This document shows, piece by piece, positions 16,687-38,736 of a stretch of DNA of 64,000 bases. The DNA lies in assembly GCA_017609915.1 (NCBI GenBank), contig JAFCDA010000001.1, positions 5,033 through 69,032 on the forward strand. Direction: 5' to 3'. The position numbers were made by a program, and so were the translations under genes. Below the pieces are notes generated by a model that had not been told where the DNA came from, did no database searches, and saw nothing but the letters and a program-made list of their open reading frames with translations. Each line of letters opens with the position of its first letter. The stretch's first letter is position 1. This DNA is from Candidatus Pacearchaeota archaeon. Its GTDB lineage: Archaea; Nanobdellota; Nanobdellia; Pacearchaeales; GW2011-AR1.

Positions 16687-16749
16687 TGTGGAATTTAATA
16701 CATATTTTAACTACATAAAAGCTTTTAAATTAAAAAGATAGTCAAAAAT

Positions 16750-18911: not shown

Positions 18912-19023
18912 AAGGTGAATAAACTAATATCTTATAAGTATAGGAAAGATATTCAATGAGGAGCTTAAACTTATCAGATAATAAAACTTAAGATTTATAG
19001 AGATATTTAAAATAAAATATAAA

Positions 19024-19932
19024 ATGAATGGAGAAAATTTTTTTAAAAAAAGCTTAATAAAGTCTTATAAAATAGTTAGGGATAGATTTAGTAAATATGG
19101 TTTTGGGAATTTTTATTTTGTTAGAAAAATTAATGCAACTTTTTTAAAATATGTGACGCCTAATTTAATAATAATTAAAGGACATAAAATGTTTTTAGAC
19201 CCCTCAGATTCTTTAAGGCTATCAATATATGGTAATCATGAGACAAATGAAAAAGAGATTTATAAAAAATATATTAAAAAAGGAGATGTTGTTTTAGATG
19301 TTGGAGCCAATATAGGGTATGATACTTTGATTCTTGCAAAACTTGTTGGTAAAAATGGCAGGGTTTTTGCTTTTGAACCAGGCCCGATTAATTTTCAATT
19401 ACTTGAAAAGAATATTAAAATTAATGAATATAATAATGTAACTTTAGTAAATAAAGCAGTTTCAAAAGATAATAAATCGATTAAATTATATTTAAATGAA
19501 ACTAATGGGACAGGACATAAAATAGATGATATAAGTAATTTAGGTGTTAAACTTAACAGAAAATCAATCGATATAGAGTCAATTAAATTAGATGATTTTT
19601 TAAAGAATAAAAAAATTAAAAAAATTGATTTTGTTAAAATAGATGTTGAAGGTTCAGAAAGTGAAGTAATTAAGGGAATGAATAATATTTTTAAAAACAA
19701 TAAATCTTTAAAAATGATATTAGAATTTACTCCTGGTGCACTTAAAAACTATGGAAAAGACCCTAAAAAATATTTAAAAGAATTTATTTCTAAAGGATTT
19801 AAATTATATGAGATACCAGATAAAGGTTCTTTTGATAAAGATAAAATACCAATAAATAATGATAAAGATATTCATGATTTATTAAAAAGATGGGGCAAAA
19901 GTGGAACAAATCTGTTTTGTATAAGGGATTGA
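19024..19932 (+). CDS. FkbM family methyltransferase
   Basis: VLDVGANIGYDTLILAKLVGKNGRVFAFEPGPINFQLL motif of FkbM-type MTases. Confidence 0.75.
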   Translation: MNGENFFKKSLIKSYKIVRDRFSKYGFGNFYFVRKINATFLKYVTPNLIIIKGHKMFLDPSDSLRLSIYGNHETNEKEIYKKYIKKGDVVLDVGANIGYDTLILAKLVGKNGRVFAFEPGPINFQLLEKNIKINEYNNVTLVNKAVSKDNKSIKLYLNETNGTGHKIDDISNLGVKLNRKSIDIESIKLDDFLKNKKIKKIDFVKIDVEGSESEVIKGMNNIFKNNKSLKMILEFTPGALKNYGKDPKKYLKEFISKGFKLYEIPDKGSFDKDKIPINNDKDIHDLLKRWGKSGTNLFCIRD

Positions 19933-20001
19933 GATGTATAAACGAAAAACATATATTGCTCCTAAGATAAATTTTTAAACCATTATATTTACTAACTAAT
20001 C

Positions 20002-20973
20002 ATGAAAAAAAAGGAAATTCCTGTTTCATTGGTTATGCTTACTTTTGAGATAGATAAAACTGAACCAGCAATTAGAAATGCTCTTGAACAAGATTATCCT
20101 AATAAAGAAATAATTGTTGTAAATGACAATCCAAAATTAAAAATTCCTGATTCTATACTTAAATTAGAAAAACAACGTAAAATTAAAATTGTAAATAATG
20201 TAAAAAATCTTGGTATGGCAGGAAGTTTAAATGCAGGAATCAAGGCTTCAAAAACTAATACAATATTATTTACTTGTCATGATTATTTTTTTGAAAGTAA
20301 TCAATGGATTAGACATATTGTAGAAAAACTTTATTCTGATAAAAAACTAGGAACTATTGGTTCTGTTGTTAGATTGCCTATAGAAGAATGGAAAAATTAT
20401 AGTTTCTTAAACAAACTTTTTACATTTAGGCATATGCTTAAACCATCACGTAATTTACATAGTTGTTATAAAAGAGAGGTATTTAATAAATTAGGATTAT
20501 TTGATTCAAAAAATTTTAAGCGTGGTGGAGAAGATGGAGATTTTTATTCTAAGGTTATAAAAGCCGGGTATAAAACAGGGTGTATTGAAGATAGCCTAAT
20601 CCATAAACATTATAATAAAGATGATAGTTTATTAAAAATACTTAGAAAAGAATATGAGTATGGAAGATCTCATGGAGCACGTAAAAGAAAAGATGGTCTT
20701 TTTTCAAGACTGGGTTTATTTGATTTTGAAATTCGTATTTTACTTATACTAGGATTTATAATGGGTTTATTTATTCATCCTATAATAAGTTTTCTTTATT
20801 TTTTGCCTTTCTTTTTTGTAGCTTTATTTAAGTGCATTAAAGCATATCCTCAAACAAAATGGATTCCTGGATTAATTCTTTCTCCTTTTGCAGGAGTACT
20901 TATTTTATTAATCCAAACTATTGGGGCAACAAAAGAATATTTAGTCCTTCCTAAAACTAAAAGCAAAAAATAA
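20002..20973 (+). CDS. GT2 family glycosyltransferase with C-terminal membrane helices
   Basis: VSLVMLTFEIDKTEPAIRNALEQDYPNKEIIVVNDNP GT-A N-terminus; two C-terminal TM helices. Confidence 0.7.
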   Translation: MKKKEIPVSLVMLTFEIDKTEPAIRNALEQDYPNKEIIVVNDNPKLKIPDSILKLEKQRKIKIVNNVKNLGMAGSLNAGIKASKTNTILFTCHDYFFESNQWIRHIVEKLYSDKKLGTIGSVVRLPIEEWKNYSFLNKLFTFRHMLKPSRNLHSCYKREVFNKLGLFDSKNFKRGGEDGDFYSKVIKAGYKTGCIEDSLIHKHYNKDDSLLKILRKEYEYGRSHGARKRKDGLFSRLGLFDFEIRILLILGFIMGLFIHPIISFLYFLPFFFVALFKCIKAYPQTKWIPGLILSPFAGVLILLIQTIGATKEYLVLPKTKSKK

Positions 20974-21051
20974 AAGTGTTAAAATTATCTAGATCCTAGA
21001 TATAGATTTCACAACAATAAATCTTTTAAAGGGTTTAAACAAACTTAATCT

Positions 21052-22473
21052 ATGAAAAAAGTGATATTAATGTATCCTAATTGTAGGTGGAAAAAAGGGT
21101 TTGAAAATAAAACCATATGGAACCTTCATCCTTATAATCTTTGTTTACTTTCTGCAATGATAGAACAAGATTATGAAACTAAAATAGTAGATACTAATAT
21201 TGATGATATATCTAAAGAAGATTTTGTAAAGATTATAGAAGAATATAAACCAGATATAGTTGGAATTTCAGTTCTTACAAATGAATATTTAGATTCTGGT
21301 TTAATTGCTGCAGAAATAGTTAAATCAATAAATTCTGAAATAAAAACAGTTATAGGAGGGGTTGCAACTTTTGATCCTGAATCTATAATTAAAAATGAAA
21401 ACATTGATTATGTTGTAGTGGGTGAAGGAGAATTTACTTTTAAAAAATTATGTAATCATATTTTTAGTGATGGAGATTTGCCATCTAAAGGCCTTGTTTT
21501 TAAAAAAGATGGAGAAATAATAAATCTTGGTCGTTCAGATTTTATAGAAGATTTAGATAGTCTTCCTTTTCCATCATATGATAAAGTTGATTATTTAAAA
21601 TATGCTAATTCAATTCAAAGAGAAAGTGTAGATAGCCCAAGAGAAATGCCTTATGCAAACATAATAACATCAAGAGGCTGTCCTTATAATTGTTGTTTTT
21701 GCCAGGCTGGAAAAATTTCTGGTAAAAAACCAAGGTTTCGTAGTGTAGAAAATATTCTTAAGGAAATTAGTTGGTTAAAAGAAAAATATGGAATAAAAGC
21801 TCTTATTTTTGATGATGATAATCTTCTTGTTGATAAAGAAAGAGCTAAAAATTTATTTAGGGGAATGATTGATAGAGGATTTAATCTAAAATGGAATGCT
21901 ATTGCTATGGCTGCATTTAAATTAGACGAAGAAATGATAGATTTAATGAAAAAAAGTGGATGTCAATATGTAGATATTGCTATTGAATCAGGTGTTGAAA
22001 GAGTACTTCATGATATTATTCATAAACCTTTAAATTTAGAACATGCAAGAGAAGTTCGAGATTTATTAAAAAAATATGAGATTGATTTTGCTGCAAATTT
22101 TATTATGGGATTTCCAGGAGAAACCTGGGATGAAATTAGAAAAACAATTAAATTTGCAGAAGAATTTGATGCAGATTATACTAAAATATTTATTGCAACA
22201 CCTTTACCAAACACAGAATTATATGAAGTTGCCAGAGAAAAAGGTTATTTAAAAGAAAATTTTAGTTTTGATAAACACTTATGGACTGATGGATGGATAG
22301 AAACTGAAGAATTTCGTCCAGAAGATCTAAAAATCTTAAGGGCATATGAATGGGATAGGATAAATTTCTCAAGCCCAGAAAAAATAAAAAAAATTATCTC
22401 TATGATGGACATTAGTGTAGAAAGACTTAATGAGATAAGAAAAAATACACGCAAGAGGGCAAACCCTCAATAA
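21052..22473 (+). CDS. B12-binding domain radical SAM protein
   Basis: Cobalamin-binding N-domain (VILMYPN...VGISVLT..GG) then SRGCPYNCCFCQAG radical SAM motif. Confidence 0.8.
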   Translation: MKKVILMYPNCRWKKGFENKTIWNLHPYNLCLLSAMIEQDYETKIVDTNIDDISKEDFVKIIEEYKPDIVGISVLTNEYLDSGLIAAEIVKSINSEIKTVIGGVATFDPESIIKNENIDYVVVGEGEFTFKKLCNHIFSDGDLPSKGLVFKKDGEIINLGRSDFIEDLDSLPFPSYDKVDYLKYANSIQRESVDSPREMPYANIITSRGCPYNCCFCQAGKISGKKPRFRSVENILKEISWLKEKYGIKALIFDDDNLLVDKERAKNLFRGMIDRGFNLKWNAIAMAAFKLDEEMIDLMKKSGCQYVDIAIESGVERVLHDIIHKPLNLEHAREVRDLLKKYEIDFAANFIMGFPGETWDEIRKTIKFAEEFDADYTKIFIATPLPNTELYEVAREKGYLKENFSFDKHLWTDGWIETEEFRPEDLKILRAYEWDRINFSSPEKIKKIISMMDISVERLNEIRKNTRKRANPQ

Positions 22474-22483
22474 ACTTTATAAA

Positions 22484-23134
22484 ATGAGTCCAAATTTAAA
22501 AAATCTTTCAGATGAAGAAAAAGAAATTAAGATGATTGAGTTTGTAAAAGAGATTGTTGAATTATGGGAAGCTGCAAAAATACCTTATCCTATTCATTTT
22601 AGTGGGGGAAATGAAAAAGAATTAATTAAAATCTTTTCTGAAATTAAAGAAGGAGATTATGTTTTTTCTACGCATAGGGGGCATTATCATTATTTATTAA
22701 AAGGTGGAGATTTTGAAAAGTTAAAAGAATTTATTTTAAGAGGAGATAGTATGCATATTTTTGATAAAGATTTAAAATTTCTTACATCTGCTATTGTTGC
22801 TGGAACTCCCTCTATTGCTGCAGGAGTTGCTTATGCTTTAAAAAAGAAAAATAGTGAAAATAAAGTATGGTGTTTTATTGGAGATGGGGCAGAAGATGAA
22901 GGGCATTTTTATGAAGCAGTTAGGTATGTTGATGGATGGGATTTGCCATGCACATTTATTATAGAAGATAATGATCGGTCTGTTGAAACTCCAAAAAGTG
23001 AAAGATATGGAAAATCTCAAATTCAGTGGCCATCATGTGTTAGAAGATATATGTACAAGCCAAAATATCCTCATGTAGCAACTGAAAATTGGGTTGATTT
23101 TTCAGGAATGAAAGCTGGAGGTCCTTCTTTTTAA
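22484..23134 (+). CDS. thiamine-diphosphate enzyme E1-alpha-like PP-domain protein (truncated, 216 aa)
   Basis: STHRGHYHYLLKG (YRxHG-like) and TPP-binding IGDGAEDEGHFYEAV...FIIEDNDRS (GDG-x-NN-like); stop overlaps next start (TAATG). Confidence 0.6.
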   Translation: MSPNLKNLSDEEKEIKMIEFVKEIVELWEAAKIPYPIHFSGGNEKELIKIFSEIKEGDYVFSTHRGHYHYLLKGGDFEKLKEFILRGDSMHIFDKDLKFLTSAIVAGTPSIAAGVAYALKKKNSENKVWCFIGDGAEDEGHFYEAVRYVDGWDLPCTFIIEDNDRSVETPKSERYGKSQIQWPSCVRRYMYKPKYPHVATENWVDFSGMKAGGPSF

Positions 23135-24774
23135 TGAAATATAAAGAATTAATTAGTGAAGAAATGAAAAAATTAGCAAAAAATGATAAAACTGTCTTTA
23201 TAGGATATAATATTAAAAGAGGTTCAAAAGCTTATGGGACCTTAACAGATGTTCAAGATAAATGTATTGAAATGCCCCTTGCAGAAAATTTAATGACAAG
23301 TTTTGCTATTGGCATGTCTTTAGAAGGCTATAAACCAGTAGTTTTCTTTGAGAGACAAGATTTTATTTTAAATGCCTTAGACTCTATTGTTAATCATTTA
23401 GATAAAATTAAAGAAATGTCTAAAGGAGAATTTGAAACTCCTATAATAATCAGAGCCCCTGTAGGCGGCAAAAAACCTTTAGATCCTGGGATGCAGCATA
23501 CTCAAGATTTTAGTGAGGTATTGAAAAAAATTATTAAATTTCCAGTTTATGAATTAAAAACTGAAGAAGATTTTGCTAATTATTCTAAAATTATTCAAAA
23601 TATAAAAGAACCAACCCTTTTTATAGAGTATAAGGACCTTTATGGAAAAGAAATTGAGCAAAAAGAAAAAATAATTCTTGATAGTCATAAATTAATCTGG
23701 CATACAGAAAGAGTTAATGCATGGTTAAGAGGAGAAAGAATTGCTCCTATAACAATAGATTGCGCATTAACCAGGAGATGTAATTATAGATGTACTTATT
23801 GTTATGGACAATTACAAGCAAATGATGAAAAAAAGATGACTTTAGAGGTAATTCAAAGATTTTTAAAAGATGCTTCTGAAATAGGGGTAAAAGCTGTAAG
23901 TTTTGTAAGTGATGGAGAAAGTTCATGCTCTCCTCATCTTTATGATTCAATAATTTATGGGAAAAAACAAGGACTAGATATGGCTCTTGGAACAAATGGG
24001 TCTTTGCTTAAAAAAGAAGGGCTTAAAGAAGCAATAGAGTGCTTAACCTATCTTAGATTTAATATTTCTGCTGGAGAAAAAGAACGATATAAAGAAATAC
24101 ATGGATGTTCTGATTTAGATTATGATAAAACAATTGAAAATATTAAAGAATGTGTAAAAATAAAAAAAGAAAATAATTTAGATGTTACAATTGGTTTACA
24201 AATGGTTCTCATGTCTGAATTTAAAGACCAAATAATTCCTTTAACAAAATTAGGAAAAGAACTAGGAGTTGATTATTTAGTTATTAAACATTGTAGTGAT
24301 GATGAAGAAGGTAGTTTAGGAATAGATTATGATAAATATTTTGATAAAGATTTAATTGAAAAAATAAAAGAAGCTGAATCTTATTCAGATGAAAATTACT
24401 TAGTTAAAGCAAAATGGTCAAAAATCTTAAGTGGGGGAAAAAGAAATTATTCACGATGTTTTGGACCTCCTTTTATCTTACAGATGTCTGGTTCTGGATT
24501 AGTTGCTCCTTGCGGAATGTTTTTTAATGATAAATATGAAAAATATCATATTGGAAATATAGCTGAAAAATCTTTTAAAGAGATTTGGGAAAGCGATAGA
24601 TATTGGGAAGTTATGGATTTAATTGCTTCTGAAGATTTTGATGCAAAAACAATGTGTGGAACTTTATGCTTGCAGCATAAAGTAAATGAATATCTCTGGG
24701 ATTTAAAAGATAAAGGGGTAACTAATATAGATGTACCAGAAGGAGAAGCTCCAATGCATCTTAATTTTATTTGA
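23134..24774 (+). CDS. fusion protein: E1-beta/transketolase Pyr-domain-like N-terminus + radical SAM/SPASM domain
   Basis: N-terminal ~190 aa match E1-beta Pyr domain (CIEMPLAENLMTSFAIGMSLEGYKPVVFF...IIRAPVGG); then CALTRRCNYRCTYCYG radical SAM and C-terminal Cys-rich SPASM-like region (CFGPPF...APCG). Confidence 0.7.
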   Translation: MKYKELISEEMKKLAKNDKTVFIGYNIKRGSKAYGTLTDVQDKCIEMPLAENLMTSFAIGMSLEGYKPVVFFERQDFILNALDSIVNHLDKIKEMSKGEFETPIIIRAPVGGKKPLDPGMQHTQDFSEVLKKIIKFPVYELKTEEDFANYSKIIQNIKEPTLFIEYKDLYGKEIEQKEKIILDSHKLIWHTERVNAWLRGERIAPITIDCALTRRCNYRCTYCYGQLQANDEKKMTLEVIQRFLKDASEIGVKAVSFVSDGESSCSPHLYDSIIYGKKQGLDMALGTNGSLLKKEGLKEAIECLTYLRFNISAGEKERYKEIHGCSDLDYDKTIENIKECVKIKKENNLDVTIGLQMVLMSEFKDQIIPLTKLGKELGVDYLVIKHCSDDEEGSLGIDYDKYFDKDLIEKIKEAESYSDENYLVKAKWSKILSGGKRNYSRCFGPPFILQMSGSGLVAPCGMFFNDKYEKYHIGNIAEKSFKEIWESDRYWEVMDLIASEDFDAKTMCGTLCLQHKVNEYLWDLKDKGVTNIDVPEGEAPMHLNFI

Positions 24775-24938
24775 ATAAAAAATAATCTTAAAATATTAAA
24801 AGGTAACTAAATAATATCCATATCTTGATAAGAATAACGAGTGAGAAAAAGATTTGTAAAGCTTTAAAATGAGTAGAGATTCAAGATGGTTTGCATAACT
24901 TAAAGATATAATAAGATTCCAGTAAATAATATAAAAAA

Positions 24939-25997
24939 ATGGCAGTAGATAGTAAAATTGACGGGCATAAATTAATCCTGCATCCAAAAAGGGTGGCTGA
25001 ATGGAAAGAAAAAGGAGATTGTTATCCAATATATATTGAGATAGGTCCTACAAATATATGTAATCATAGATGTATTTTTTGTGCTTTAGATTATCTTGGA
25101 CATGAAGGATTTAATATAGACACAGAACTTATGATTAATACCTTAAAAGAAATCGGGGAAAAGGGTGTTAAATCTATAATGTTTGCCGGAGAAGGAGAAC
25201 CTCTTGCGCATAAAGATATTGGATTATTTGTTCAAACAGCAAAACAATCTGGAATAGATGTTTCTATTACAACAAATGGGGTATTATTTAATAAAGAAAA
25301 AGCAGAACAATTTCTTCATCATTTATCTTGGATAAGGTTTAGTATTGATGCTGGAACTTCTGAAACTTATAATAAAGTTCATAGAGGGGGAGAAAATGAT
25401 TTTAACAAAGTTATAGAAAACATAAAAAATGCTGTTGAAATTAAAAAAGCAAAAAATCTAAACACTGTGATTGGAATTCAGTTTTTAATGATTCCTGATA
25501 ATCTAAATGATGTTCTTAAACTTGCTCAAATAGCAAAAGATATTGGGGCAGATAATTTGCAAATAAAACCTTATTCTCAGCATCCAAAAAGTGAAAATAG
25601 TTTAGTACTATATTATGAAGATTATGCGCATTTAGAAAAAGAACTTGAAAAGTTTAATTCACCTGATTTTAAAATCTTCTTTAGAAAACAGACAATGCAA
25701 AGAGTTGAACAAGGAATCAATTATTCTGGATGTCATGGGCTTCCATTTTTTGCTCTAATAGATGCAAAAGGAAACATAATTCCATGCAATCTTTTTTATG
25801 ATATTCCAGAATTTACATATGGAAATTTACATGAAAACAGTTTTTCAGAAATTTGGAAAAGTGAAAAAAGACAACAAGTTTTACAAAGAATAAGAGAAAA
25901 AGGAATTGAAGATTGCAGACATGCATGTAGATTAGATGTTATTAACAGATATTTACAAAGATTAAAAAATCCTCAATCACATGATAATTTTGTGTGA
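24939..25997 (+). CDS. radical SAM/SPASM domain protein (paralog of C-terminal half of preceding gene)
   Basis: IEIGPTNICNHRCIFCALDY radical SAM motif; C-terminal GCHGLPFFALIDAKGNIIPCNLFYD..ENSFSEIWKSE parallels SPASM region of 23134..24774. Confidence 0.8.
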   Translation: MAVDSKIDGHKLILHPKRVAEWKEKGDCYPIYIEIGPTNICNHRCIFCALDYLGHEGFNIDTELMINTLKEIGEKGVKSIMFAGEGEPLAHKDIGLFVQTAKQSGIDVSITTNGVLFNKEKAEQFLHHLSWIRFSIDAGTSETYNKVHRGGENDFNKVIENIKNAVEIKKAKNLNTVIGIQFLMIPDNLNDVLKLAQIAKDIGADNLQIKPYSQHPKSENSLVLYYEDYAHLEKELEKFNSPDFKIFFRKQTMQRVEQGINYSGCHGLPFFALIDAKGNIIPCNLFYDIPEFTYGNLHENSFSEIWKSEKRQQVLQRIREKGIEDCRHACRLDVINRYLQRLKNPQSHDNFV

Positions 25998-26067
25998 TTG
26001 AGTTAACAAATCATAACTACGGAAAATTTTTAAATGAGGTATCAATTAAATAAAAATAATAAAAAAG

Positions 26068-27015
26068 ATGATGAATAAAGTATTAATTATAAAAACTGGG
26101 TATTCTGAGGTTTTAGATAGAAGAAATAATTCAAGAGTAGTAAGTTTTGGAGATGTATTAAGAACAACTCCATTATTACATCTTTATAAAGACAATCATA
26201 TAACTTGGGTCACAGATGAAAAAGCGATTCCATTACTTAAACACAACCATTTAATTAATCGTCTACTCGTTTTAGATTTTATTTCAATATCTCAATTACA
26301 AACAGAAGAATTTGATGTTGTGATAAATCTTGAAAAAATTCCTGGAATATGTGCACTTGCAGACAAAATAAGAGCAAGAAGAAATAGATATGGATTTACT
26401 TTTAATAGTCAAACTGGAGAAGCAGAAGCATATGATAAATCCCATGATATCCTTAGCCTGAGTACAAATCAAGAATTAAAAAGAAGTAATAAAAAAACTG
26501 CCCAAGAACTTTTATTTGAAATAGTTGGGGAAGAATGGAAAGGGGAAGAATATGTTCTTGGATATCAACCTAAAACAGAGGAAAAATACACTGTTGGTTT
26601 AAACAGCATTGTAGGACTTAAATGGCCAACTAAAGCCTGGCCAGCAGAAAATTGGGATGAATTAACTGAAATATTAAAAAATGGAGGGATAGTAGTAAGC
26701 AGACAAGACCAACAACCTAAAGAAACATTAACAGACCTCTTTAAGTATATGGATTGGATAAATTCTTGTAAATTAATTGTTAGCAATGATAGTCTTGGAA
26801 TGCATTTGGGAATAGCATTAAAGAAAAAAATTTTAGGATTATTTGGAGCAACATCTCCTTATGAAGTGCATTTTTATGGTGATGGAAAACCAATTATGCC
26901 AAATCCTATCCCAAGTTGTTTACCTTGTTTTAGAGGTTCTTGTGAAAGAAGAAAAAATTGTATAAATGAGATTACTCCTGAAAAAGTATATCAAGAGATT
27001 AGGAAGCTTATATAA
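26068..27015 (+). CDS. GT9 family glycosyltransferase (heptosyltransferase-like) with C-terminal Cys4 motif
   Basis: KVLIIKTGYSEVLDRR...FGDVLRTTPLLH GT9 N-terminus; C-terminal CLPCFRGSCERRKNC. Confidence 0.65.
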   Translation: MMNKVLIIKTGYSEVLDRRNNSRVVSFGDVLRTTPLLHLYKDNHITWVTDEKAIPLLKHNHLINRLLVLDFISISQLQTEEFDVVINLEKIPGICALADKIRARRNRYGFTFNSQTGEAEAYDKSHDILSLSTNQELKRSNKKTAQELLFEIVGEEWKGEEYVLGYQPKTEEKYTVGLNSIVGLKWPTKAWPAENWDELTEILKNGGIVVSRQDQQPKETLTDLFKYMDWINSCKLIVSNDSLGMHLGIALKKKILGLFGATSPYEVHFYGDGKPIMPNPIPSCLPCFRGSCERRKNCINEITPEKVYQEIRKLI

Positions 27016-27066
27016 AATATATTCAATAAGAATCATCTTTAAAAACAAATCTTTTTTGCAATAAGA

Positions 27067-28032
27067 ATGAATAAAAAAGATTTAGAAACATATGGTTCTG
27101 GTTTATTAGATTTTCATACTCATTCAACTTTCTCTGATGGGGGAGATACCCCAACACAACTTGTAGAAAGAGCTAAAAAACAGGGGGTTACTGCAATGGC
27201 TTTAACAGACCATCATGGTCATAAAGGATTACCTGAATTTATAGCTGCATGTAAGCAATATGATATATTTCCAATACCTTTTGGAGTTGAAATTGCTGCA
27301 GAACTTCCTGAAAAAGTTTTAACACCACAAGATATGTCTTCTCCTGATTTAATTATTCTTGGAAAAAATCCAAATGTAAAACCTATGAAAGGATATCAAG
27401 AAATATATTTTAATGATTTGGAAAAAAGGCATTTACCTGAAATATTAGCTGGATTAAGAAAGGTTGGTTTTGAATTACCTGTTGTAAATCTAAAAGAACA
27501 ATGTGCTTCTTTTCATGCTCCTCCAGATATACTTCATGATTTTGTTCATTATAAAAAAAATATGCAAGTTTTAAAAAATTATGTTAAAACAAAGGATTCA
27601 AATGTTAGTGATGCAGACATTGAAAAAAAACCAATAGCATTTGCTAATAGATGGTTATATGCTGTAGGTATGCCTGCTTATACAGCAAGATTTAAAGGTT
27701 TTAGCCTTGATAGTGCACTTCAATTAGTTGAAGAGATGAACTGTAAACTATTTATTGCACACCCTGGAGGAGATTATGGGTTTTTAACAGATGCTATGTT
27801 AAATTATTTTACTGAGAAGAAAATCCATGGAATTGAGATAAGAAGTTATCTTAACAGCCCTGAACAAAATGCTAAATTTGATAAATTAGCTAAAGAACAC
27901 AATCTAATAAGATCTGGAGGTTCTGATTGTCATGGTGCCAAGGGGCCTTTTAGAATGGGAATATATGATCGTCCACAAAATCAACTTCCTAAAGATGTTT
28001 TAGAAGAGCTTATGGACTGGTTGCCTTCTTAA
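27067..28032 (+). CDS. PHP domain metal-dependent phosphoesterase
   Basis: LDFHTHSTFSDGGDTPTQLVERAKKQGVTAMALTDHH PHP motif I/II. Confidence 0.7.
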   Translation: MNKKDLETYGSGLLDFHTHSTFSDGGDTPTQLVERAKKQGVTAMALTDHHGHKGLPEFIAACKQYDIFPIPFGVEIAAELPEKVLTPQDMSSPDLIILGKNPNVKPMKGYQEIYFNDLEKRHLPEILAGLRKVGFELPVVNLKEQCASFHAPPDILHDFVHYKKNMQVLKNYVKTKDSNVSDADIEKKPIAFANRWLYAVGMPAYTARFKGFSLDSALQLVEEMNCKLFIAHPGGDYGFLTDAMLNYFTEKKIHGIEIRSYLNSPEQNAKFDKLAKEHNLIRSGGSDCHGAKGPFRMGIYDRPQNQLPKDVLEELMDWLPS

Positions 28033-28224
28033 TTATTAGTTTAAATTCTTTCTTCAACATTATTCTCTAAAATATATATCTTTCCTACAATAGTTTTTTT
28101 AAAGGAGTTTTTATAATCTTTAATATCCTTAATTTAAAACTATCACATATAAAACTTAAAGTTCCACACCTCAATTGTGTATAACTTGATTATGTAAAGA
28201 TATTGAATTAATAAAATAAAAAAG

Positions 28225-29136
28225 ATGGACCCAATACAAATCCCTCAAGGTTACAATTATATATCTGCATTTTTAACAATGAGATGCAATCTTAATTGTA
28301 GTTTTTGCTTAAATTCAATTGACAAAAGCAGAGAATTTAATAGGACAAAATTTAAAGAGCTTTCTGGAGAGCAATGGGTTAAAGCATTAAATAGGATTGA
28401 ATCACGTCCAGAAGTTCCAGTAACCTTTTCAGGAGGAGAGCCTTTTTTACATCCAGATTTTCTTTATATCCTTAAGAATCTTAAAAAAGATTTAAACATA
28501 GATATTTTAACTAATTTATCTTTTGAAGTAGCTGTTGAAAAATTTTTAAAAGAAATAGACCCAGAAAGAATAAAGAGAAATGTTCCTTATGCTTGTATTC
28601 GTGTTTCTTATCATCCAGAACAAATGGGAAATGGTGCAGAACTTATTGAAACAGTTAAAAAACTAAAAGATGCTGGATTTAGTATTGGTGTATGGAGTGT
28701 TTTATATCCTTCTTTTGAAAATCTCTCTGCAATAAATCAAATGCAATTTAGATGTATAGATGCAGGAATTGATTTTAGATTAAAAGAATATACTGGAACC
28801 TATAAGGGAGACTTATATGGAGATTATTCTAAATATTCTAACTCAGTTTTATCAAATAAATTAAAAAAATGCTTATGTAAGGGCTCTGAATTATTAATAG
28901 CTCCAAATGGAAATATTTACAAATGTCACAGTGATTTATTTAGTGAAGAATTTCCTATAGGAAATATTCTTGACCCTAATTTCCAAATTAAAAACGAATT
29001 TAGAAAATGTGAGAAATATGGTCAGTGCCATCCATGTGATGTAAAACTTAAGACAAATTATAAACAAGAATTAGGGAATACCTCTGTTGAAATAAAAGAA
29101 ATAGAAGATAATTCTCAACCGAAAGTTATAGTTTAA
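28225..29136 (+). CDS. radical SAM protein with SPASM-like C-terminal Cys cluster
   Basis: ISAFLTMRCNLNCSFCLNS CxxxCxxC motif; C-terminal CKGSELLIAPNGNIYKCHSD...CEKYGQCHPCD. Confidence 0.75.
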   Translation: MDPIQIPQGYNYISAFLTMRCNLNCSFCLNSIDKSREFNRTKFKELSGEQWVKALNRIESRPEVPVTFSGGEPFLHPDFLYILKNLKKDLNIDILTNLSFEVAVEKFLKEIDPERIKRNVPYACIRVSYHPEQMGNGAELIETVKKLKDAGFSIGVWSVLYPSFENLSAINQMQFRCIDAGIDFRLKEYTGTYKGDLYGDYSKYSNSVLSNKLKKCLCKGSELLIAPNGNIYKCHSDLFSEEFPIGNILDPNFQIKNEFRKCEKYGQCHPCDVKLKTNYKQELGNTSVEIKEIEDNSQPKVIV

Positions 29137-29223
29137 ATTTTTTGGTATTTATAAAAATATGATGAGATAAAGAAGAGGGATTAAGTTATTCAGATAATAT
29201 CTCTTGATTGAGCTTATAAAATA

Positions 29224-30840
29224 TTAAAATGTTTTTTTTATAGATTTTTTAACTAATTTTAAATCCTTAAATAATTTTTTTATAACTGATTTTATCACCA
29301 TTAAATCCTCTTTATCAAGAGAATGTGAAATAATTATTAAAGACAAGTAAAGTAAAATAAACAAAGAGGTTAAAATTATAATTGAAAAAACATTAATTGT
29401 AACTTTTTCTATTAAATAAAATAAAACTCCTGTTGGGATTATTGAAACTAAGATTATAGTAAACATCTTTCTTTTTAAAGGTATAAATGAAAGATGTTTT
29501 TTTGTTTGTATAATCAAAAGGGTATTTAAAAAGATTATAGATAAAACAGTTGCAAGAGAAGCTCCGATTAAACCATTTGAATTATCTAAAGAAAACAAAA
29601 CAGGTATTGGAACTAATATTGAATTTAATATTAAATTAACAATTGCAGATATAGATATATTAAACAAGATTAACTTAGATTTACCTAACATTGAAATAAG
29701 ATTTGTTGAAATCATAAATAATGCAGAAATAAATGTTCCAATTAGCAAAAATTTAAGGGCAATTTGTGCAATAACATATTGACTTCCAAAAAGGATATTT
29801 AATGATGCTCCTGAAAAAAAGAATATTAAAATAAAAATTGGAAGAATTGCCATAAATATCCATTTATTTACTTGTTTACTAAGCTGTTTGATTAAAGCAT
29901 TATTTTTTGCAGAATATTGTCTTGTTATAAGTGGAAAAAATAACTGCATAAATAATTGTGGGACAATCATTATAAGCATTGCAATTGGCACAGCTGCATT
30001 ATAAAACCCAACTTCTACTGCAGATTTATAATAACCTAAAGAAATAGTATCAATCCAATGAAAAATAATAGATATAGCTGCAAAAAATAATAATGGCCAG
30101 GAATATTGAAAAAACTCTTTACTAATCTTTGAATAATCTTTTTTCTCATAAGAACCAAAGATTTTATTTATTTTATTTTTACAAACTAAATAAGCAGCAA
30201 ATAATGTAAGAATTGAACCAGATATGTAAGACCAAACAACAGCATTTCCTCCTGAATTAAAACCTATGAAAATAAGAATTATAAGCACACCTACACGGAC
30301 TAAATTTTGAAAAATATTAAAAATAAAAGAATACCATCCAATCTTTTCAAACCCTCTAAGCACTGTGAGAAATATACTTGCAAGCATTACAGCAAGAATT
30401 GAAAAACTCATTATTTTTAGAAAAATAGAAAGGCTTGGATTATGAAATATTTGTATTGAAATAAAATCTGATAAACCAATTAAAACTATTGAAGCAATTA
30501 TCCCAGAGATTAAATAAAATCTCAGTGTTTTTCTAAATAAATACCTCATCTCATTAATCTTTTTTCTCTCTCTTAATAATGGGACAAATCTTAATAATCC
30601 ATCTACAAAACCAAAAGAAGCAATTGTGATAAAAAGAGGGATTACAGATAAAACAAGAGAAAATAATCCATAAATTTCTGGGCCATAATAACGAGCAATA
30701 ATTATCCTATAAGCATACATTAAAACTTTTGATAAAAAAAGTCCAATAAAAACAATAAAAGAAGATTTCATAATTAGTTTAAGAGATTTATTAAGCTGAT
30801 TTTCTCTTGTAATATGTTCCTGATTTTTCAAATGTTCCAT
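29224..30840 (-). CDS. polysaccharide/oligosaccharide flippase (MOP/Wzx family)
   Basis: 538 aa, about 14 TM helices, MATE-like Wzx architecture, located in glycan locus. Confidence 0.65.
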   Translation of the reverse strand: MEHLKNQEHITRENQLNKSLKLIMKSSFIVFIGLFLSKVLMYAYRIIIARYYGPEIYGLFSLVLSVIPLFITIASFGFVDGLLRFVPLLRERKKINEMRYLFRKTLRFYLISGIIASIVLIGLSDFISIQIFHNPSLSIFLKIMSFSILAVMLASIFLTVLRGFEKIGWYSFIFNIFQNLVRVGVLIILIFIGFNSGGNAVVWSYISGSILTLFAAYLVCKNKINKIFGSYEKKDYSKISKEFFQYSWPLLFFAAISIIFHWIDTISLGYYKSAVEVGFYNAAVPIAMLIMIVPQLFMQLFFPLITRQYSAKNNALIKQLSKQVNKWIFMAILPIFILIFFFSGASLNILFGSQYVIAQIALKFLLIGTFISALFMISTNLISMLGKSKLILFNISISAIVNLILNSILVPIPVLFSLDNSNGLIGASLATVLSIIFLNTLLIIQTKKHLSFIPLKRKMFTIILVSIIPTGVLFYLIEKVTINVFSIIILTSLFILLYLSLIIISHSLDKEDLMVIKSVIKKLFKDLKLVKKSIKKTF

Positions 30841-34539: not shown

Positions 34540-35223
34540 ATGGCGGCACAAACAAAATGGCAAAGTTTTGAGGAATTTTTAGTTAATCAACCAATCCAAG
34601 TAGATTATTTTTATTTGATAATTGCTTTACTAATAGCTGCATTACTTTCATTTATATTAGGTAAACTTTATGTGAAATATGGGACTTCTATTTCAAATAG
34701 GAGAAAATTTTCATCTAATTTTGTCTTGGTTACAACTACTACTACTTTAATTATAATGATTGTTAAATCATCTCTTGCACTTTCATTAGGGCTTGTTGGA
34801 GCATTATCAATTGTAAGATTTAGGGCAGCAATAAAAGAACCTGAAGAACTAGCTTTCTTGTTTCTCACAATTTCAATTGGATTAGGATTAGGTGCAGGAC
34901 AATTATTAACAACAATTATAGCTTTTTTTATAATTTCTTTATTAATTTGTGGGCGTCATTTTTATTATAAAAAAGAAGAAAATCAAAATCTATATTTAAC
35001 TGTTTCTGGAAAAAATATTAAACTAAAAGATATAGTTGATGCATTAAACAAACATTGCTCATCTGTTCATTTAAAACGTTTTGACCAATTAGAAGAAGGA
35101 TTAGAAGCCTCTTTTTTAGTTGATTTTGATTCTTTCCAAAAATTAGAAAAAACAAAAAGAGAGTTAAATTCTCTTTCAAAAGAAGTTAATATAACATACC
35201 TTGATAAATCGGGCTTAGATTAA
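34540..35223 (+). CDS. membrane protein, DUF4956-like (N-terminal TM helices, soluble C-terminal domain)
   Basis: 227 aa; 3-4 TM helices then soluble tail; placement immediately 5' of CotH and VTC genes mirrors bacterial DUF4956-VTC-CotH neighbourhoods. Confidence 0.4.
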   Translation: MAAQTKWQSFEEFLVNQPIQVDYFYLIIALLIAALLSFILGKLYVKYGTSISNRRKFSSNFVLVTTTTTLIIMIVKSSLALSLGLVGALSIVRFRAAIKEPEELAFLFLTISIGLGLGAGQLLTTIIAFFIISLLICGRHFYYKKEENQNLYLTVSGKNIKLKDIVDALNKHCSSVHLKRFDQLEEGLEASFLVDFDSFQKLEKTKRELNSLSKEVNITYLDKSGLD

Positions 35224-35225
35224 AA

Positions 35226-37982
35226 ATGAAATTAAAAGAAAGGAAAGAAGGTAATTTTTTTTATTATTTAAAGAAAAGTTTAAAATTTATTTCTAGAGGT
35301 ATATTTAATAAAAAAACAAAAATCATTTTCTGGATTTTAATTCTGATTGTTCTTTTTTCAATGGGAACGCTTTTTGGATTATTAATTTCTGGTTTTTTTG
35401 GGACATTTGATGAGCCCTCACAAAGAGTTATAGATTTATTGCATTCTAAAGGCATAATAGGGCTTAAAAATATTAAACGCCAAATGGAAGGGGTTATTAG
35501 TGAAAATTTCAAGATTCCAATTAATTACATAGCAGGCCAATTTTCAAAACCTAAGAAAATCTTTATTGATATTGGTCTTGATAATTATAAAAGAATAGAG
35601 TATAAACGTGAACAAGCATTAGATATTGGGGTGCTTGTTACTTCTGGAGAAGATTATGTTCCTGCAGAGATTAGATATAAAGACCAGGTAGTTAATGTAA
35701 ACTTAAGATTAAAAGGAGATTGGGTGGATCATCTTGAAGGAGATAAATGGTCTTTTAGAATTAAAACAAAAGGAGATACGCTTTTTGGAATGAAAACTTT
35801 TTCAATACAAGACCCAAAAACTAGAAATTATTTAAATGAATGGTTGTATCATCAGGCTCTTGAAAGAGAAGATGTCTTATCTCTTAAGTATGATTTTGTA
35901 GAGGTTGTTATAAATGGAGAAAATAAAGGCATATATGCTTTAGAAGAACATTTTGAAAAACAATTAATTGAACGAAATAATAGGAGAGAAGGATTGATTA
36001 TTAAATTTAATGAAGATCCTATGTGGGATGAAATTGTAAAAATAAATAATTATTATACTCATCCTCTTGAATTAATTAGTGCTTTAGATAATAAATCTTT
36101 AGATTGGTTTTATAGTAGCAGTATAGAAACTTTTACTAATGAAAAATCTTTAAAAGATCCTTATTTAGCTAAACAATTTGAAGAAGCTAGTAGTTTATTA
36201 GAATCTTTTAGAAGAGGTTCATTAGGAGTTTCAGAAGTTTTTGATACAGATAAACTTGCAAAATATTTTGCTATTAATACATTAATGGGAACTGGACATG
36301 CTTCTACATGGAATAATATTAGATTTTATTATAATCCTATAACTTCCCGTTTAGAACCAATTGGTTTTGATGCAAATTGTGATGTTGAGGCCCCATATAA
36401 TGTTATCGGAGATTATATTCCTCCTTGTTTATCTAATGAAAACAATTGTTCTCAAAAAATAGAATCTTTTTCTGATTTATTTCTCAGGGATAAAGAATTT
36501 TTTGAAAAATATATGAAAGAATTAGATAAATTTTCTCAAAAATCTTATTTAGATAGCTTATTTTTAGATTTGGGTGATGACCTTGAAAAAAATTTAAACA
36601 TTATTCATAAGAATTATCCCTTTTATTGTTTTTCCATCCAATCTTTTTATGAAAGACAGAAACGAATAAGAGAAGGATTAACCCCTTTGAAAAGTATAAA
36701 TGCATATTTTCAGAAAAGTTTACCTTCTCAAAATGAACTTGTTTTATATATTGGAAATGTGAAGTTCATCCCTTTAGAAATTGAAAATTTAGTTTATAAT
36801 GATTCTGTTATCTTTCACTTAATTGAAGGTGATAAACTTCTTCAACCAAAAATAGCTTCTGAGCCTGTAGATTATCAAAAGTTTAATTTTAAAATTCCTG
36901 CTGGTTTTTCATGGAATGACAGCTTTGCTTCAGATTTAAAGATTAATTATAAAATCTTGGGAATTGAGGGGATAAAAGAAGAGATTGTTTCTCCCTGGTC
37001 TTATGTTGAAGAAAACTTCTTAGAAGAAGATTTTATAAGGCAAGAAACAAATATTAGTTCTTTTGAATTATTAATAATAGAAGAAGATACTAAATCAATA
37101 TTTATTCAAAAAGGGTCGTGGATTTTAAATCAAAGTATGACTATTCCTCCAGGATTTAGTGTGTATTGTAATGAAGGAACAAGTATTAATCTTATGAATG
37201 GTGCAACAATACTTTCTTATTCAGACTTACAATTTTCTGGATCAGACGAAAATCCAATTAAAATCTTTTCATCTGATAGAACTGGGCAAGGCCTTACATT
37301 ATTAAATGTCGAACGTGTTTCTAATCTTAAACATGTTATTTTTAATGATTTGACAAGTCCAATTAAAAAAGGCTGGGAACTTTCTGGAGCAATCAACTTT
37401 TATAAATCTCCTGTTAAATTAGAGAATATTATTATCAAAGATATTAATTCAGAAGATGGTTTAAATATAATTGACTCTGAATTTGAAATTAGAGATTCTC
37501 ATTTTGAAAATTGTATTTCAGATTGTTTTGATGGTGATTTTGTAGAAGGTCCTATAAAATCTTCTTCATTTATTGGTTGTGGAAATGATGGTTTAGATTT
37601 TTCAGGAAGTTTTGTTGATATAGAAAATATTGATATTTTAAATGTAGGAGACAAAGGGATAAGTGTTGGAGAAGATAGTAATGTAACAATAGAGAATGCA
37701 AAGATAAATGGAGATAAGTTAAATAAAGGTTATATTGGAATTGCAAGTAAGGATAAATCACAAGTTTTTATTAAAAATAGTGAAATTTCAAATGTTGAGT
37801 ATGGTCTTGCAGTTTATGAAAAAAAATCTGAATTTGGAGCTGCTTCAATAAATGCTATCAATATTAATTTTTCTAATATAAATAATAGTTATATTATTGA
37901 AAAAGAATCATCTCTTTTAATTGATGATGTTATGATGCTTAATAAAGAAGAAGAAGTTTATAAAAAATTATATGAATTATGA
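35226..37982 (+). CDS. CotH kinase-like domain protein with C-terminal right-handed parallel beta-helix repeats
   Basis: N-terminal TM anchor; CotH-like block LRLKGDWVDHLEGDKWSFRIKTKGD...FVEVVINGENKGIYALEEHF...WNNIRFYYNPITSRLEPIGFDAN; C-terminus with GxDG/NxxI beta-helix repeats. Confidence 0.6.
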   Translation: MKLKERKEGNFFYYLKKSLKFISRGIFNKKTKIIFWILILIVLFSMGTLFGLLISGFFGTFDEPSQRVIDLLHSKGIIGLKNIKRQMEGVISENFKIPINYIAGQFSKPKKIFIDIGLDNYKRIEYKREQALDIGVLVTSGEDYVPAEIRYKDQVVNVNLRLKGDWVDHLEGDKWSFRIKTKGDTLFGMKTFSIQDPKTRNYLNEWLYHQALEREDVLSLKYDFVEVVINGENKGIYALEEHFEKQLIERNNRREGLIIKFNEDPMWDEIVKINNYYTHPLELISALDNKSLDWFYSSSIETFTNEKSLKDPYLAKQFEEASSLLESFRRGSLGVSEVFDTDKLAKYFAINTLMGTGHASTWNNIRFYYNPITSRLEPIGFDANCDVEAPYNVIGDYIPPCLSNENNCSQKIESFSDLFLRDKEFFEKYMKELDKFSQKSYLDSLFLDLGDDLEKNLNIIHKNYPFYCFSIQSFYERQKRIREGLTPLKSINAYFQKSLPSQNELVLYIGNVKFIPLEIENLVYNDSVIFHLIEGDKLLQPKIASEPVDYQKFNFKIPAGFSWNDSFASDLKINYKILGIEGIKEEIVSPWSYVEENFLEEDFIRQETNISSFELLIIEEDTKSIFIQKGSWILNQSMTIPPGFSVYCNEGTSINLMNGATILSYSDLQFSGSDENPIKIFSSDRTGQGLTLLNVERVSNLKHVIFNDLTSPIKKGWELSGAINFYKSPVKLENIIIKDINSEDGLNIIDSEFEIRDSHFENCISDCFDGDFVEGPIKSSSFIGCGNDGLDFSGSFVDIENIDILNVGDKGISVGEDSNVTIENAKINGDKLNKGYIGIASKDKSQVFIKNSEISNVEYGLAVYEKKSEFGAASINAININFSNINNSYIIEKESSLLIDDVMMLNKEEEVYKKLYEL

Positions 37983-38014
37983 AATATCAGATTAAAAACT
38001 AATATCTTGATTGA

Positions 38015-38028
38015 GCTTATAAAATATA
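38015..38028 (+). promoter_or_regulatory. TATA box 22 nt upstream of VTC gene ATG
   Basis: gcttataaaatata; 23-nt block tcttgattgagcttataaaatat duplicated at 29202-29224. Confidence 0.4.
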
Positions 38029-38049
38029 GGTTAATAGAATAACACAAAA

Positions 38050-38736
38050 ATGAAAAATAATGATTTAAAGAGATTTAGATATGAAAGAAAATTTGTTATA
38101 TCTGAATTAAATTCTTATGAAATAGAACATTTAATCAGACATAATCCTGCAATTTTTTCTGAAATATTTTATGAAAGAATGGTTAATAATATTTATTTAG
38201 ATTCTATAGATTTGAAAAATTATAATGAAAATTTAATTGGAATTTCTAATAGAATAAAAATTAGAATTAGATGGTATGGGGGTGTTTTTGGAATTATTAA
38301 AAAGCCTGTATTAGAATTAAAAGTAAAAAATAATGAATTAGGGAGAAAACTATCTTTTCCATTAAAGGGATTTATTTTAGATAAAAAATTTTCCTTAAAT
38401 TTATTACAAAAAGTTTTCTCAAAATCAAATCTTCCAAAGTGGTTAGTTGAAAGATTAAAATTATATTCTCCAAGTCTTCTTAATTCTTATAAGAGAAAAT
38501 ATTTTATTTCTGCTAATAAAAAATATAGGATTACTTTAGATAAAGATCAAATTTTTTATAAAATAAAAAATAGAAATAATTTCTTTAAGGAAAAAATTAC
38601 AAATAAAAAAATCTGTATTTTAGAAATAAAATATGCTTTAGAAGATTATAAAAGAGCAGCCAATATAACTAGATATTTTCCATTTAGATTAATAGCAAAC
38701 TCCAAATATGTTAATGGAATGGATTTGTTTGGTTAG
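38050..38736 (+). CDS. VTC domain (polyphosphate polymerase / CYTH-like) protein
   Basis: FRYERKFVISELNSYEIEHLIRHNPAIFSEIFYERMVNNIYLDS...IKIRIRWYG pattern of VTC domain. Confidence 0.55.
   Translation: MKNNDLKRFRYERKFVISELNSYEIEHLIRHNPAIFSEIFYERMVNNIYLDSIDLKNYNENLIGISNRIKIRIRWYGGVFGIIKKPVLELKVKNNELGRKLSFPLKGFILDKKFSLNLLQKVFSKSNLPKWLVERLKLYSPSLLNSYKRKYFISANKKYRITLDKDQIFYKIKNRNNFFKEKITNKKICILEIKYALEDYKRAANITRYFPFRLIANSKYVNGMDLFG

Follow-up and report, generated by a model that had tools for sequence, protein, structure and literature searches.

A DUF4956–CotH–VTC gene module shared by archaea and bacteria, with a possible role in polyphosphate-linked modification of the cell surface

Genes encoding a CotH kinase-like protein, a polyphosphate (polyP) polymerase-domain protein and a DUF4956 membrane protein have been described as accessory genes of Gram-positive Pel loci (PMC7112168, PMC12345266), and similar genes are present in NELoc-2 of Clostridium perfringens (PMC2879425). 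Deletion of the DUF4956 and CotH genes in Streptococcus intermedius changes the level of Pel as well as aggregation, and the authors of that study report that the trio was not found outside Pel loci (PMC12345266). The trio has been known beside bacterial Pel loci as an uncharacterised module. Here we analysed a trio of the same three families in a stretch of 64,000 nucleotides (hereafter the window) from a Candidatus Pacearchaeota archaeon (NCBI GenBank assembly GCA_017609915.1, contig JAFCDA010000001.1, positions 5,033 to 69,032 of the forward strand), and found that it is a conserved operon or module in both archaea and bacteria. Our analysis adds the wide spread of the family and the fact that it is not tied to Pel, its archaeal copies and their likely horizontal origin, the replacement of a catalytic Asp by His in the CotH domain, a probable topology of the DUF4956 protein with its N-terminus outside the cell, and an optional secreted phosphoesterase.

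The Pel accessory genes (SIR_1594-1592 in S. intermedius, occurring with or without DUF4832) resemble the window trio in that the same three families are adjacent and associated with an exopolysaccharide, the CotH protein is exported, the VTC protein is soluble and the DUF4956 protein is a membrane protein with an ACT-like tail. They differ in gene order, which is CotH-VTC-DUF4956 in the Pel loci and DUF4956-CotH-VTC in the window, and in the build of the CotH protein, which is fused to FN3 in the former and membrane-anchored and fused to a beta-sandwich and a beta-helix in the latter. The window protein also carries a His in its catalytic loop, whereas a bacterial trio-linked CotH protein without a beta-helix (Pseudobutyrivibrio) keeps the Asp. 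Furthermore, the window trio is not contiguous with pelDEADAFG and has no DUF4832, and its family extends to archaea and many non-Firmicute phyla.

Single members of the trio also resemble other described systems. The eukaryotic VTC complex (Vtc4/Vtc3/Vtc1) is a coupled polymerase and translocase that has the same triphosphate residues as the VTC protein of the trio, for which a membrane partner is encoded alongside; by analogy, the two may share a logic in which synthesis on the cytoplasmic face is coupled to passage through the membrane. In contrast to the eukaryotic proteins, which have an SPX domain and a fused transmembrane domain, the VTC protein of the trio is separate, and its partner is an MgtC-like DUF4956 protein rather than a three-helix DUF202 domain. 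Bacillus CotH (5JD9/5JDA) has the same fold and belongs to the same Pfam family as the large protein of the trio, in which the loop Asn and the metal-binding Asp are retained. However, the two are only 15–20% identical, the loop of the archaeal protein is one residue longer with His in place of Asp, and Bacillus CotH works in the mother-cell cytoplasm, while the archaeal protein is predicted to be extracytoplasmic and is fused to a beta-helix. The literature that we searched contained only five papers mentioning DUF4956, and none that studied the function of a VTC-domain protein from a prokaryote.

Synteny and spread of the trio

The three open reading frames (ORFs) of the trio lie on one strand (Table 1), separated by 2 bp between DUF4956 and CotH (35224-35225) and by 67 bp between CotH and VTC (37983-38049), and their coordinates, lengths and gaps had all been given exactly in a sequence-only reading of this DNA made before our analysis. 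The family assignments proposed there were confirmed by Pfam profile searches, every one above its cut-off: DUF4956 in the 227-amino acid (aa) protein (E=2.2e-16, 60.5 bits versus a cut-off of 30.6), CotH (PF08757) in residues 160-433 of the 918-aa protein (E=1.3e-11, 45.1 bits versus 23.8), and VTC in the 228-aa protein (E=3.8e-24, 86 bits versus 23), where residues 9-226 cover profile positions 1-233 of 235. The Pfam Beta_helix profile scored slightly below its cut-off of 25.9 bits on the whole 918-aa protein (E=2.3e-5, 24.5 bits) and above it on the C-terminus alone (28.9 bits). None of the three proteins matched an NCBIfam model, and single-sequence searches of the PDB with them gave only marginal matches, so that profiles were required.

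To place the trio in a wider context, we searched for relatives of its proteins across genomes. We found 2476 homologues of the 918-aa protein (E<1e-5). The best 120 of them are mostly near full length (692–957 aa) and 40–60% identical to it, and in a scan of one genome per species at least 564 genomes encode the full-length protein of ~900 aa. Carriers include, among archaea, DPANN lineages, Methanosarcina, Methanogenium marinum and Methanolobus and, among bacteria, KSB1, Poribacteria, Planctomycetota, Omnitrophota, Krumholzibacteriia, Ignavibacteriales, Rhodothermales and Patescibacteria. All ORFs from 80 fetched loci and the window (81 loci in total) were then compared with profiles built from the trio proteins of the window. 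The order DUF4956, CotH/beta-helix, VTC was strictly adjacent in 46 of the 81 loci, and where the flanks were long enough (roughly 70 loci), about 60 loci held the complete trio, the exceptions being mostly contig ends. Median gaps were 2 bp between DUF4956 and CotH and 0 bp between CotH and VTC, with many overlaps of 1–4 bp. An identical trio order is found in Methanosarcina sp. Mfa9 at 44% identity. DUF4956 is the best conserved member (63–82% identity among the top 120 matches, versus 40–60% for CotH), and its relatives form 4933 representative clusters (50% identity; E<=1e-3) among 1.84 billion representative proteins. The same trio thus recurs in other archaea (DPANN and methanogens) and in many bacteria, and the bacterial three-family neighbourhood mentioned in the sequence-only reading is borne out by the Gram-positive Pel loci, C. 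perfringens NELoc-2 and a Pseudobutyrivibrio plasmid for which RefSeq gives these annotations.

The recurrence of one gene order in different phyla puts the adjacency far outside what chance would produce, and this conservation strongly supports a functional connection between the three genes. That three unrelated genes merely happen to be neighbours in the window, for which only the 67-bp gap before the third gene could speak, is refuted by the synteny survey, in which the same order and spacing were observed in those 46 loci drawn from at least 564 genomes of both domains; we give this explanation practically no weight. One detail of the earlier reading, a TATA element of its own for the third gene, is not supported: TTATAAA is present at 38017-38023, but with 96 copies in the window versus 98 expected from shuffles it carries no information, and a separate promoter for this gene is likewise unsupported. 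A scan of 34200-39000 for sigma-70 promoters and terminators returned 31 sites versus 30.7 expected and is uninformative in an AT-rich archaeon (window G+C ~27%).

The window is archaeal, as is apparent from a DUF655 gene, an S13-S4-S11-RpoD(Rpb3) cluster and an unlinked 5S rRNA gene, and probably belongs to DPANN; the nearest named relatives of the 918-aa protein come from Pacearchaeota, Nanoarchaeota and Woesearchaeota. In a rough neighbour-joining tree, DPANN copies cluster together and adjoin bacteria of the candidate phyla radiation (CPR), while methanogen copies are separate and mixed with bacteria. This pattern indicates at least two transfers of the trio into archaea, and a horizontal origin of the archaeal copies is likely. 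A tblastn search of plasmids with the window CotH domain found nothing, and a query with Bacillus cereus CotH returned one useful, divergent trio on a plasmid of Pseudobutyrivibrio. Three loci of the sample also contain a second, divergent trio in another gene order (L003:11108-14597 on the minus strand, L034:5963-8414 and L038:6243-11025), made up of a protein of ~1000 aa with CotH and beta-helix/NosD domains, a VTC protein and a DUF4956 protein that matches MgtC weakly.

Table 1 Features of the trio and its surroundings in the window (positions in the 64,000-nucleotide stretch)
Feature	Position	Strand	Details
DUF4956 membrane protein	34540..35223	+	227 aa; Pfam PF16316
CotH/beta-helix protein, membrane-anchored (predicted surface protein)	35226..37982	+	918 aa; CotH kinase-like domain, beta-sandwich, right-handed beta-helix
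Signal-anchor transmembrane helix of the 918-aa protein	35322..35393	+	residues ~33-56; hydropathy, AlphaFold2
CotH kinase-like domain	35553..36680	+	residues ~110-485; Pfam, Foldseek, hhalign
H358 codon	36297-36299	+	catalytic-loop motif
D382 codon	36369-36371	+	DFG-like motif
Beta-sandwich linker domain	36693..37025	+	residues ~490-600; AlphaFold2 secondary structure
Right-handed parallel beta-helix	37068..37940	+	residues ~615-905; Pfam, Foldseek, AlphaFold2
Stand-alone VTC (triphosphate-tunnel) domain protein	38050..38736	+	228 aa; Pfam PF09359
Surface-glycan biosynthesis cluster (context only)	15814..30840	.	Pfam; Wzx-type flippase 29224-30840 (-) at its end, 3.7 kb upstream of the trio
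Radical SAM/SPASM protein fused to transketolase pyrimidine-binding domain	23134-24774		within the glycan cluster
Second PHP-domain ORF	27067-28032		
SecD and SecF genes	31557-34182	-	SecD with N-terminal PDZ domain
Two tRNA genes	34272-34466	-	upstream border of the trio
PHP/CehA-McbA-like metallohydrolase ORF	38765-39592	-	275 aa; convergent with the VTC gene
tRNA-Leu(CAA)	39626-39709	-	
5S rRNA	39781-39895	+	62 bits; stand-alone
ABC ATPase and MacB/FtsX-type permease	40622-44785		
CARDB-domain protein	42114-43031		between the two preceding genes

Architecture of the three proteins

The VTC protein was compared with its relatives of known structure by a profile search of the PDB, which matched Vtc2, Vtc4 and Vtc3. 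In an alignment of 25 orthologues, E12, K14, R72, R74, E89, K91, K100, Y147, R149, R160, E192, K194, S218 and K219 are invariant. By profile alignment, K14, R72, R74, K91, Y147, R149, S218 and K219 correspond to yeast Vtc4 K200, R264, R266, K281, Y359, R361, S457 and K458, all of which coordinate triphosphate and whose mutants contain less polyP in yeast, and R160 corresponds to R373, which is among the positive residues close to the triphosphate (bioRxiv 10.1101/2023.01.27.525886). K458 has been described as the sole position that differs in the inactive paralogues Vtc2 and Vtc3, where it is Leu or Ile (bioRxiv 10.1101/2023.01.27.525886), and the Leu of Vtc3 (in 'FSL') is visible at this position in our alignment. 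E192-x-K194 fits the pattern of the Mn-binding E426-x-K428, a strand that was left unaligned both by HMMER and by a C-terminal sub-profile. The protein consists of the VTC domain only, with neither SPX nor a C-terminal transmembrane (DUF202) domain, and hydropathy revealed no transmembrane or hydrophobic segment and no signal in its 228 residues. Together, these sequence features indicate a cytoplasmic, probably active polyP polymerase domain of the Vtc4 type; the RefSeq name of a bacterial (Pseudobutyrivibrio) orthologue is 'polyphosphate polymerase domain-containing protein'.

The AlphaFold2 model of the 918-aa protein (predicted local distance difference test, pLDDT, 91) consists of a basic tail, one transmembrane helix, a kinase-like domain, a beta-sandwich and a beta-helix. 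The transmembrane helix has a hydropathy peak of 2.6, is modelled as a helix from residue 29 to 55 and follows a stretch (residues 1-32) with 11 Lys/Arg; by this charge distribution, everything C-terminal of it is predicted to be extracytoplasmic, as other trio-linked CotH proteins are likewise exported (Pseudobutyrivibrio; PMC12345266). Hydropathy, charge and model therefore agree with an N-terminal transmembrane segment and a C-terminal beta-helix, as had been read from the sequence. A juxtamembrane motif conserved in 22 sequences was not robust in 103 and was dropped as evidence.

The top Foldseek matches of the model were 5jda and 5jd9 (B. cereus CotH; E=6e-12, TM(target) 0.68), and hhalign, comparing a canonical-CotH profile with our 103-sequence family alignment, gave a probability of 92.5%. 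Taking the catalytic residues of CotH from the literature (PMC7821199) and mapping them by spacing, we found a catalytic-loop motif H358-[GAS]-x-x-W-x-N364 and a DFG-like G-F-D382. H358 aligns with the catalytic Asp (B. subtilis D228, B. cereus D223), an equivalence established by profile alignment and anchoring on the preceding helix rather than by structural superposition, and is His in 102 of the 103 family members, followed by Gly, Ala or Ser at position 359. In B. subtilis CotH, the D228Q mutant is inactive (PMC7821199). N364 is conserved in 98 and D382 in 96 of the 103 sequences, and the spacing of 18 between them is that of N228-D246 in B. cereus. By this spacing D382 is the metal-binding Asp (B. 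subtilis D251), although hhalign sets it on D248, two positions off, and the register is slightly uncertain. The same His is found in a divergent CotH/beta-helix protein (L038), and the CotH protein of the Pseudobutyrivibrio plasmid trio, which has no beta-helix, retains Asp. The CotH domain is, as judged from these alignments, a CotH fold with an altered catalytic loop. The earlier description of it as an atypical kinase holds for the fold, the Pfam match, the loop Asn and the metal-binding Asp, and fails at the catalytic Asp. The conserved H358 suggests a chemistry unlike that of the spore-coat Ser kinase CotH, in which the His could serve as a general base or as a phospho-His intermediate.

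Conservation extends over both extracellular domains, with 76 positions conserved in >=90% of sequences in the CotH domain and 54 in the beta-helix, and both look functional on this measure. The beta-sandwich between them had no Pfam match. The beta-helix carries two ladders of invariant or conserved Asp, Lys, Ser and Glu spaced one coil apart, D744/D766/D788/D809-K810/K842-D843/K866-K867 and D769-D771/D791/S813/S845/E869, which suggest a groove for a linear charged polymer. Its Foldseek matches include alginate lyase, the AlgE4 and AlgG epimerases, polygalacturonases and tailspike depolymerases, all of which act on polysaccharides. While the window beta-helix shares the fold and the charged groove of such enzymes (AlgG/AlgE4 C5-epimerases, alginate and pectate lyases, GH28, tailspikes), it carries no family's complete catalytic signature: the Pfam GH28 match is below the cut-off (E=0.056, 13 bits versus 22.9), GNDG aligns with NTD and GDK replaces G/QDD, and neither GHG (G/SHG) nor RIK is present.

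For the DUF4956 protein, AlphaFold2 (pLDDT 77) modelled five helices (23-47, 54-75, 78-96, 101-118 and 122-146) followed by a C-terminal domain (149-222) with a beta-alpha-beta-beta-alpha-beta, ACT/PII-like arrangement. Foldseek returned weak matches of this domain to ACT and PII-like SbtB domains and no match for the membrane part, and a search of the PDB with the sequence profile gave only spurious matches to cholera-toxin B. About 15 of the top 150 DUF4956 representatives are 440–500 aa long, and in the five that we scanned the extra N-terminal half is a signal peptide followed by a 3-keto-disaccharide-hydrolase (lectin-like/concanavalin-like) domain. Because relatives carry a signal peptide and lectin-like domain fused there, the N-terminus of DUF4956 would be outside, and the ACT-like domain would therefore be cytoplasmic; five helices and the positive-inside distribution agree with this N-out/C-in topology, which we infer from the sequences. 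The long proteins (P0373, P0386, P0389, P0401 and about 11 others) have a Pro/Glu-rich linker in those scanned. An invariant motif, R93-F-R95-A-A-I-K99-E-P-E-E103, would lie at the cytoplasmic end of helix 3 in this topology.

The architecture of the DUF4956 protein agrees with that described for the streptococcal homologue (PMC12345266), and it resembles that of the MgtC/YhiD/SapB proteins, in which several helices are likewise followed by a cytoplasmic ACT-like domain; the name 'YhiD' has been given to some DUF4956 members by the Joint Genome Institute (JGI). Sequence similarity is weak: the MgtC profile (PF02308) scored 9.1 bits (E=2.1) on the window protein and 21 bits (E=4e-4) on divergent DUF4956 paralogues, both below the cut-off of 31.4. 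In contrast to MgtC, DUF4956 has a specific RFRAAIKEPEEL motif, and nothing ties MgtC to VTC or CotH partners. On the models, DUF4956 resembles MgtC in architecture, and membership of that family is not established.

Genomic surroundings

Clustering of the flanking ORFs revealed no fourth universal gene. Genes that do recur beside the trio all belong to surface-glycan pathways: they encode glycosyltransferases of families GT2 and GT4, NAD-epimerase/dehydratase, DegT aminotransferase, nucleotidyltransferase, Wzx flippase and Wzy_C, and 35 of 74 loci have one or more of them. In a Nanoarchaeota contig (L082), the flippase is directly upstream of the trio within a glycan cluster with phosphoenolpyruvate (PEP) mutase. 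This cluster (941-9255) comprises a PEP mutase-cytidylyltransferase fusion, a phosphonopyruvate-decarboxylase-like thiamine pyrophosphate enzyme, an aldehyde dehydrogenase, a CDP-alcohol phosphatidyltransferase and the flippase, and suggests a phosphonate-decorated glycan. The Methanosarcina trio is accompanied by deacetylases and glycosyltransferases. On plasmid pNP95 of Pseudobutyrivibrio xylanivorans (L083, 6545-9684), genes for CotH (593 aa, with a C-terminal transmembrane segment), a polyP-polymerase-domain protein and DUF4956 are surrounded by a glycan cluster that is not of the Pel kind. Neither Pel nor DUF4832 genes were reported among the neighbours of the trio in the window or in the Methanosarcina, Nanoarchaeota and Pseudobutyrivibrio loci. 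A further gene, for a calcineurin-like metallophosphoesterase that carries a Sec or Tat signal, is placed within the trio or next to it in 14 of the 80 loci (L002, L015, L016, L017, L019, L021, L023, L026, L032, L034, L038, L044, L046 and L048; for example L017:8611-9705 and L032:9435-10328) and is absent from the window.

The glycan cluster of the window encodes GT6, NAD-epimerase/dehydratase, DegT aminotransferase, FkbM methyltransferase, GT2, GT9, a PHP phosphoesterase and the Wzx-type flippase, together with a B12-binding radical SAM enzyme and radical SAM/SPASM proteins, one of which is fused to a transketolase pyrimidine-binding domain. Between this cluster and the trio are the genes of SecD and SecF; we know of no description of an N-terminal PDZ domain in SecD such as is found here. 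On its downstream side the trio meets a convergent PHP-family ORF that has no signal peptide, followed by tRNA-Leu and an adjoining 5S rRNA gene, with no 16S or 23S rRNA gene in the window. Further downstream, the gene of a CARDB-domain protein is flanked by those of an ABC ATPase and a MacB/FtsX-type permease, a group that may serve to export a surface protein.

Possible functions of the module

We propose that cytoplasmic synthesis of polyP is coupled to its passage or gating by DUF4956, and that the polymer is used by the surface enzyme on a glycan; we give this reading a probability of about 0.4. The VTC protein, a soluble cytoplasmic tunnel enzyme with the Vtc4 triphosphate residues, would make polyP from ATP, and the five-helix, MgtC-like DUF4956 protein would take the nascent chain and pass it across the membrane, or gate its passage, so that the two together would do the job of the single eukaryotic VTC complex. 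The ectodomain of the 918-aa protein could use the exported polyP as a phosphoryl donor, or attach or hold it, and its target would be a linear surface polymer, most likely a glycan from the neighbouring Wzx/Wzy-type clusters, lying in the groove of the beta-helix. In some genomes the secreted metallophosphoesterase could trim the product. This reading is favoured because the predicted polymerase is cytoplasmic and the kinase-like enzyme is outside, where ATP is lacking, and because, of the three genes, the best conserved one encodes the sole partner that spans the membrane and shows translational coupling to the other two; the topological logic is its strongest argument. The polyP-linked surface phosphorylation system suggested in the sequence-only reading is a reasonable proposal and is supported in part: the functional link by conservation, the Vtc4 residues of the VTC protein and the predicted extracytoplasmic CotH/beta-helix protein support a linked surface system, while the His at the catalytic Asp position speaks against a simple atypical-kinase reading of CotH.

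Several observations weigh against such polyP export. To our knowledge, no kinase of the protein-kinase fold uses polyP as donor, and with its catalytic Asp changed to His the CotH domain could be inactive or do something else. The assignment of E192 to the Mn2+-binding E426 follows from the pattern only, and the glycan neighbours are frequent rather than universal, lying in the window 3.7 kb off behind secDF and two tRNA genes. DUF4956 does not resemble the DUF202 transmembrane domains of which the yeast VTC channel is built, and a VTC-DUF4956 fusion, looked for among the long proteins of the top DUF4956 representatives, was not found. Moreover, MgtC as the nearest relative of DUF4956 is known as a regulator and not as a channel, and deletion of the VTC gene in S. 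intermedius had no reported phenotype (PMC12345266).

The last three of these points would also fit an alternative without polyP export, in which the VTC protein makes polyP that is kept in the cytoplasm as a phosphate or energy store, DUF4956 is an MgtC-like regulator sensing a metabolite through its ACT-like domain, and glycan modification by the surface enzyme relies on another donor or on a chemistry of its own, surface remodelling and phosphate economy being controlled jointly. The likeness of DUF4956 to MgtC/YhiD in its weak Pfam match, JGI name and model of five helices with an ACT-like domain speaks for this, and a regulatory role of MgtC in phosphate and ATP metabolism has been described (PMC12345266). 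We nevertheless consider such co-regulation unlikely, if deserving of attention, as it leaves unexplained the strict adjacency with overlapping stop and start codons over dozens of phyla, the status of DUF4956 as the most conserved member, the extracytoplasmic location of every trio-linked CotH protein versus the cytoplasmic VTC protein, and the secreted phosphoesterase. A quite improbable alternative places catalysis elsewhere in the 918-aa protein: in line with a proposal for the CotH surface proteins of fungi, the CotH domain would serve as a binding module or pseudo-kinase, the actual catalyst would be the beta-helix as lyase, epimerase or hydrolase on a charged polysaccharide, and exported polyP would be a counter-ion, cross-linker or cation chelator. 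The His in place of the catalytic Asp, the stacked invariant Asp, Lys and Glu of the beta-helix with its partial GH28-like motifs (GNDG, GDKG) and the lyases, C5-epimerases and polygalacturonases among its fold neighbours are consistent with this, and the deacetylases near the Methanosarcina trio and the bacterial Pel link suggest polymers that are cationic and deacetylated in part, to which polyP could bind. However, the CotH domain is conserved like the beta-helix, including N364, D382, R161-x-K163 and E240-E241, which is unexpected for a degenerate pseudo-enzyme, and the beta-helix lacks part of the GH28 catalytic set, as neither a DD nor an HG motif is present. Some trio-linked CotH proteins have no beta-helix (Pseudobutyrivibrio; PMC12345266), which makes CotH rather than the beta-helix the constant partner.

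A further alternative concerns the VTC protein, which could be another triphosphate-tunnel enzyme (a tripolyphosphatase or nucleotide cyclase) producing a signal that is read by the ACT-like domain of DUF4956 and controls the surface enzyme. An invariant Glu, E12, stands in the prokaryotic proteins where Vtc4 has Thr198 and resembles the ExExK motif, which marks the hydrolytic members of the triphosphate-tunnel superfamily, and ACT domains bind small ligands. Hydrolases and cyclases belong to this superfamily besides Vtc4 (PMC4641920). Yet the protein matches Pfam VTC over its full length and not CYTH, all eight triphosphate residues of Vtc4 are present, among them the equivalent of Lys458 that separates the active polymerase from its inactive paralogues, and its bacterial orthologue bears a polymerase name in RefSeq, all of which make a non-polymerase role very unlikely. 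Returning to polyP export, we also considered a fuller version of it, in which the trio is a prokaryotic polyP exporter with a Vtc4-like polymerase docked on a DUF4956 oligomer, the surface CotH domain phosphorylates a glycan held in the beta-helix groove from polyP, possibly via phospho-His358, or attaches polyP to it, and the whole has spread horizontally among bacterial phyla, CPR, DPANN and methanogens. Taken with all these details, this version is doubtful. If it were true, the module would be the first case both of a protein-kinase-fold enzyme driven by polyP and of a route dedicated to polyP outside the cell.

The above analyses place the streptococcal 'Pel accessory' genes within a much broader glycan-associated system. 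Even if the polyP hypothesis fails, the trio remains a clearly bounded and conserved module in which the residues worth mutating are well defined, and it occurs in cultivable methanogens. As a testable candidate, it may bear on how phosphoryl donors are supplied to extracellular enzymes and on how polyP arrives at the cell surface. The presence of the trio in the very small genomes of DPANN archaea and CPR bacteria suggests that it may matter for the cell surface of these organisms.

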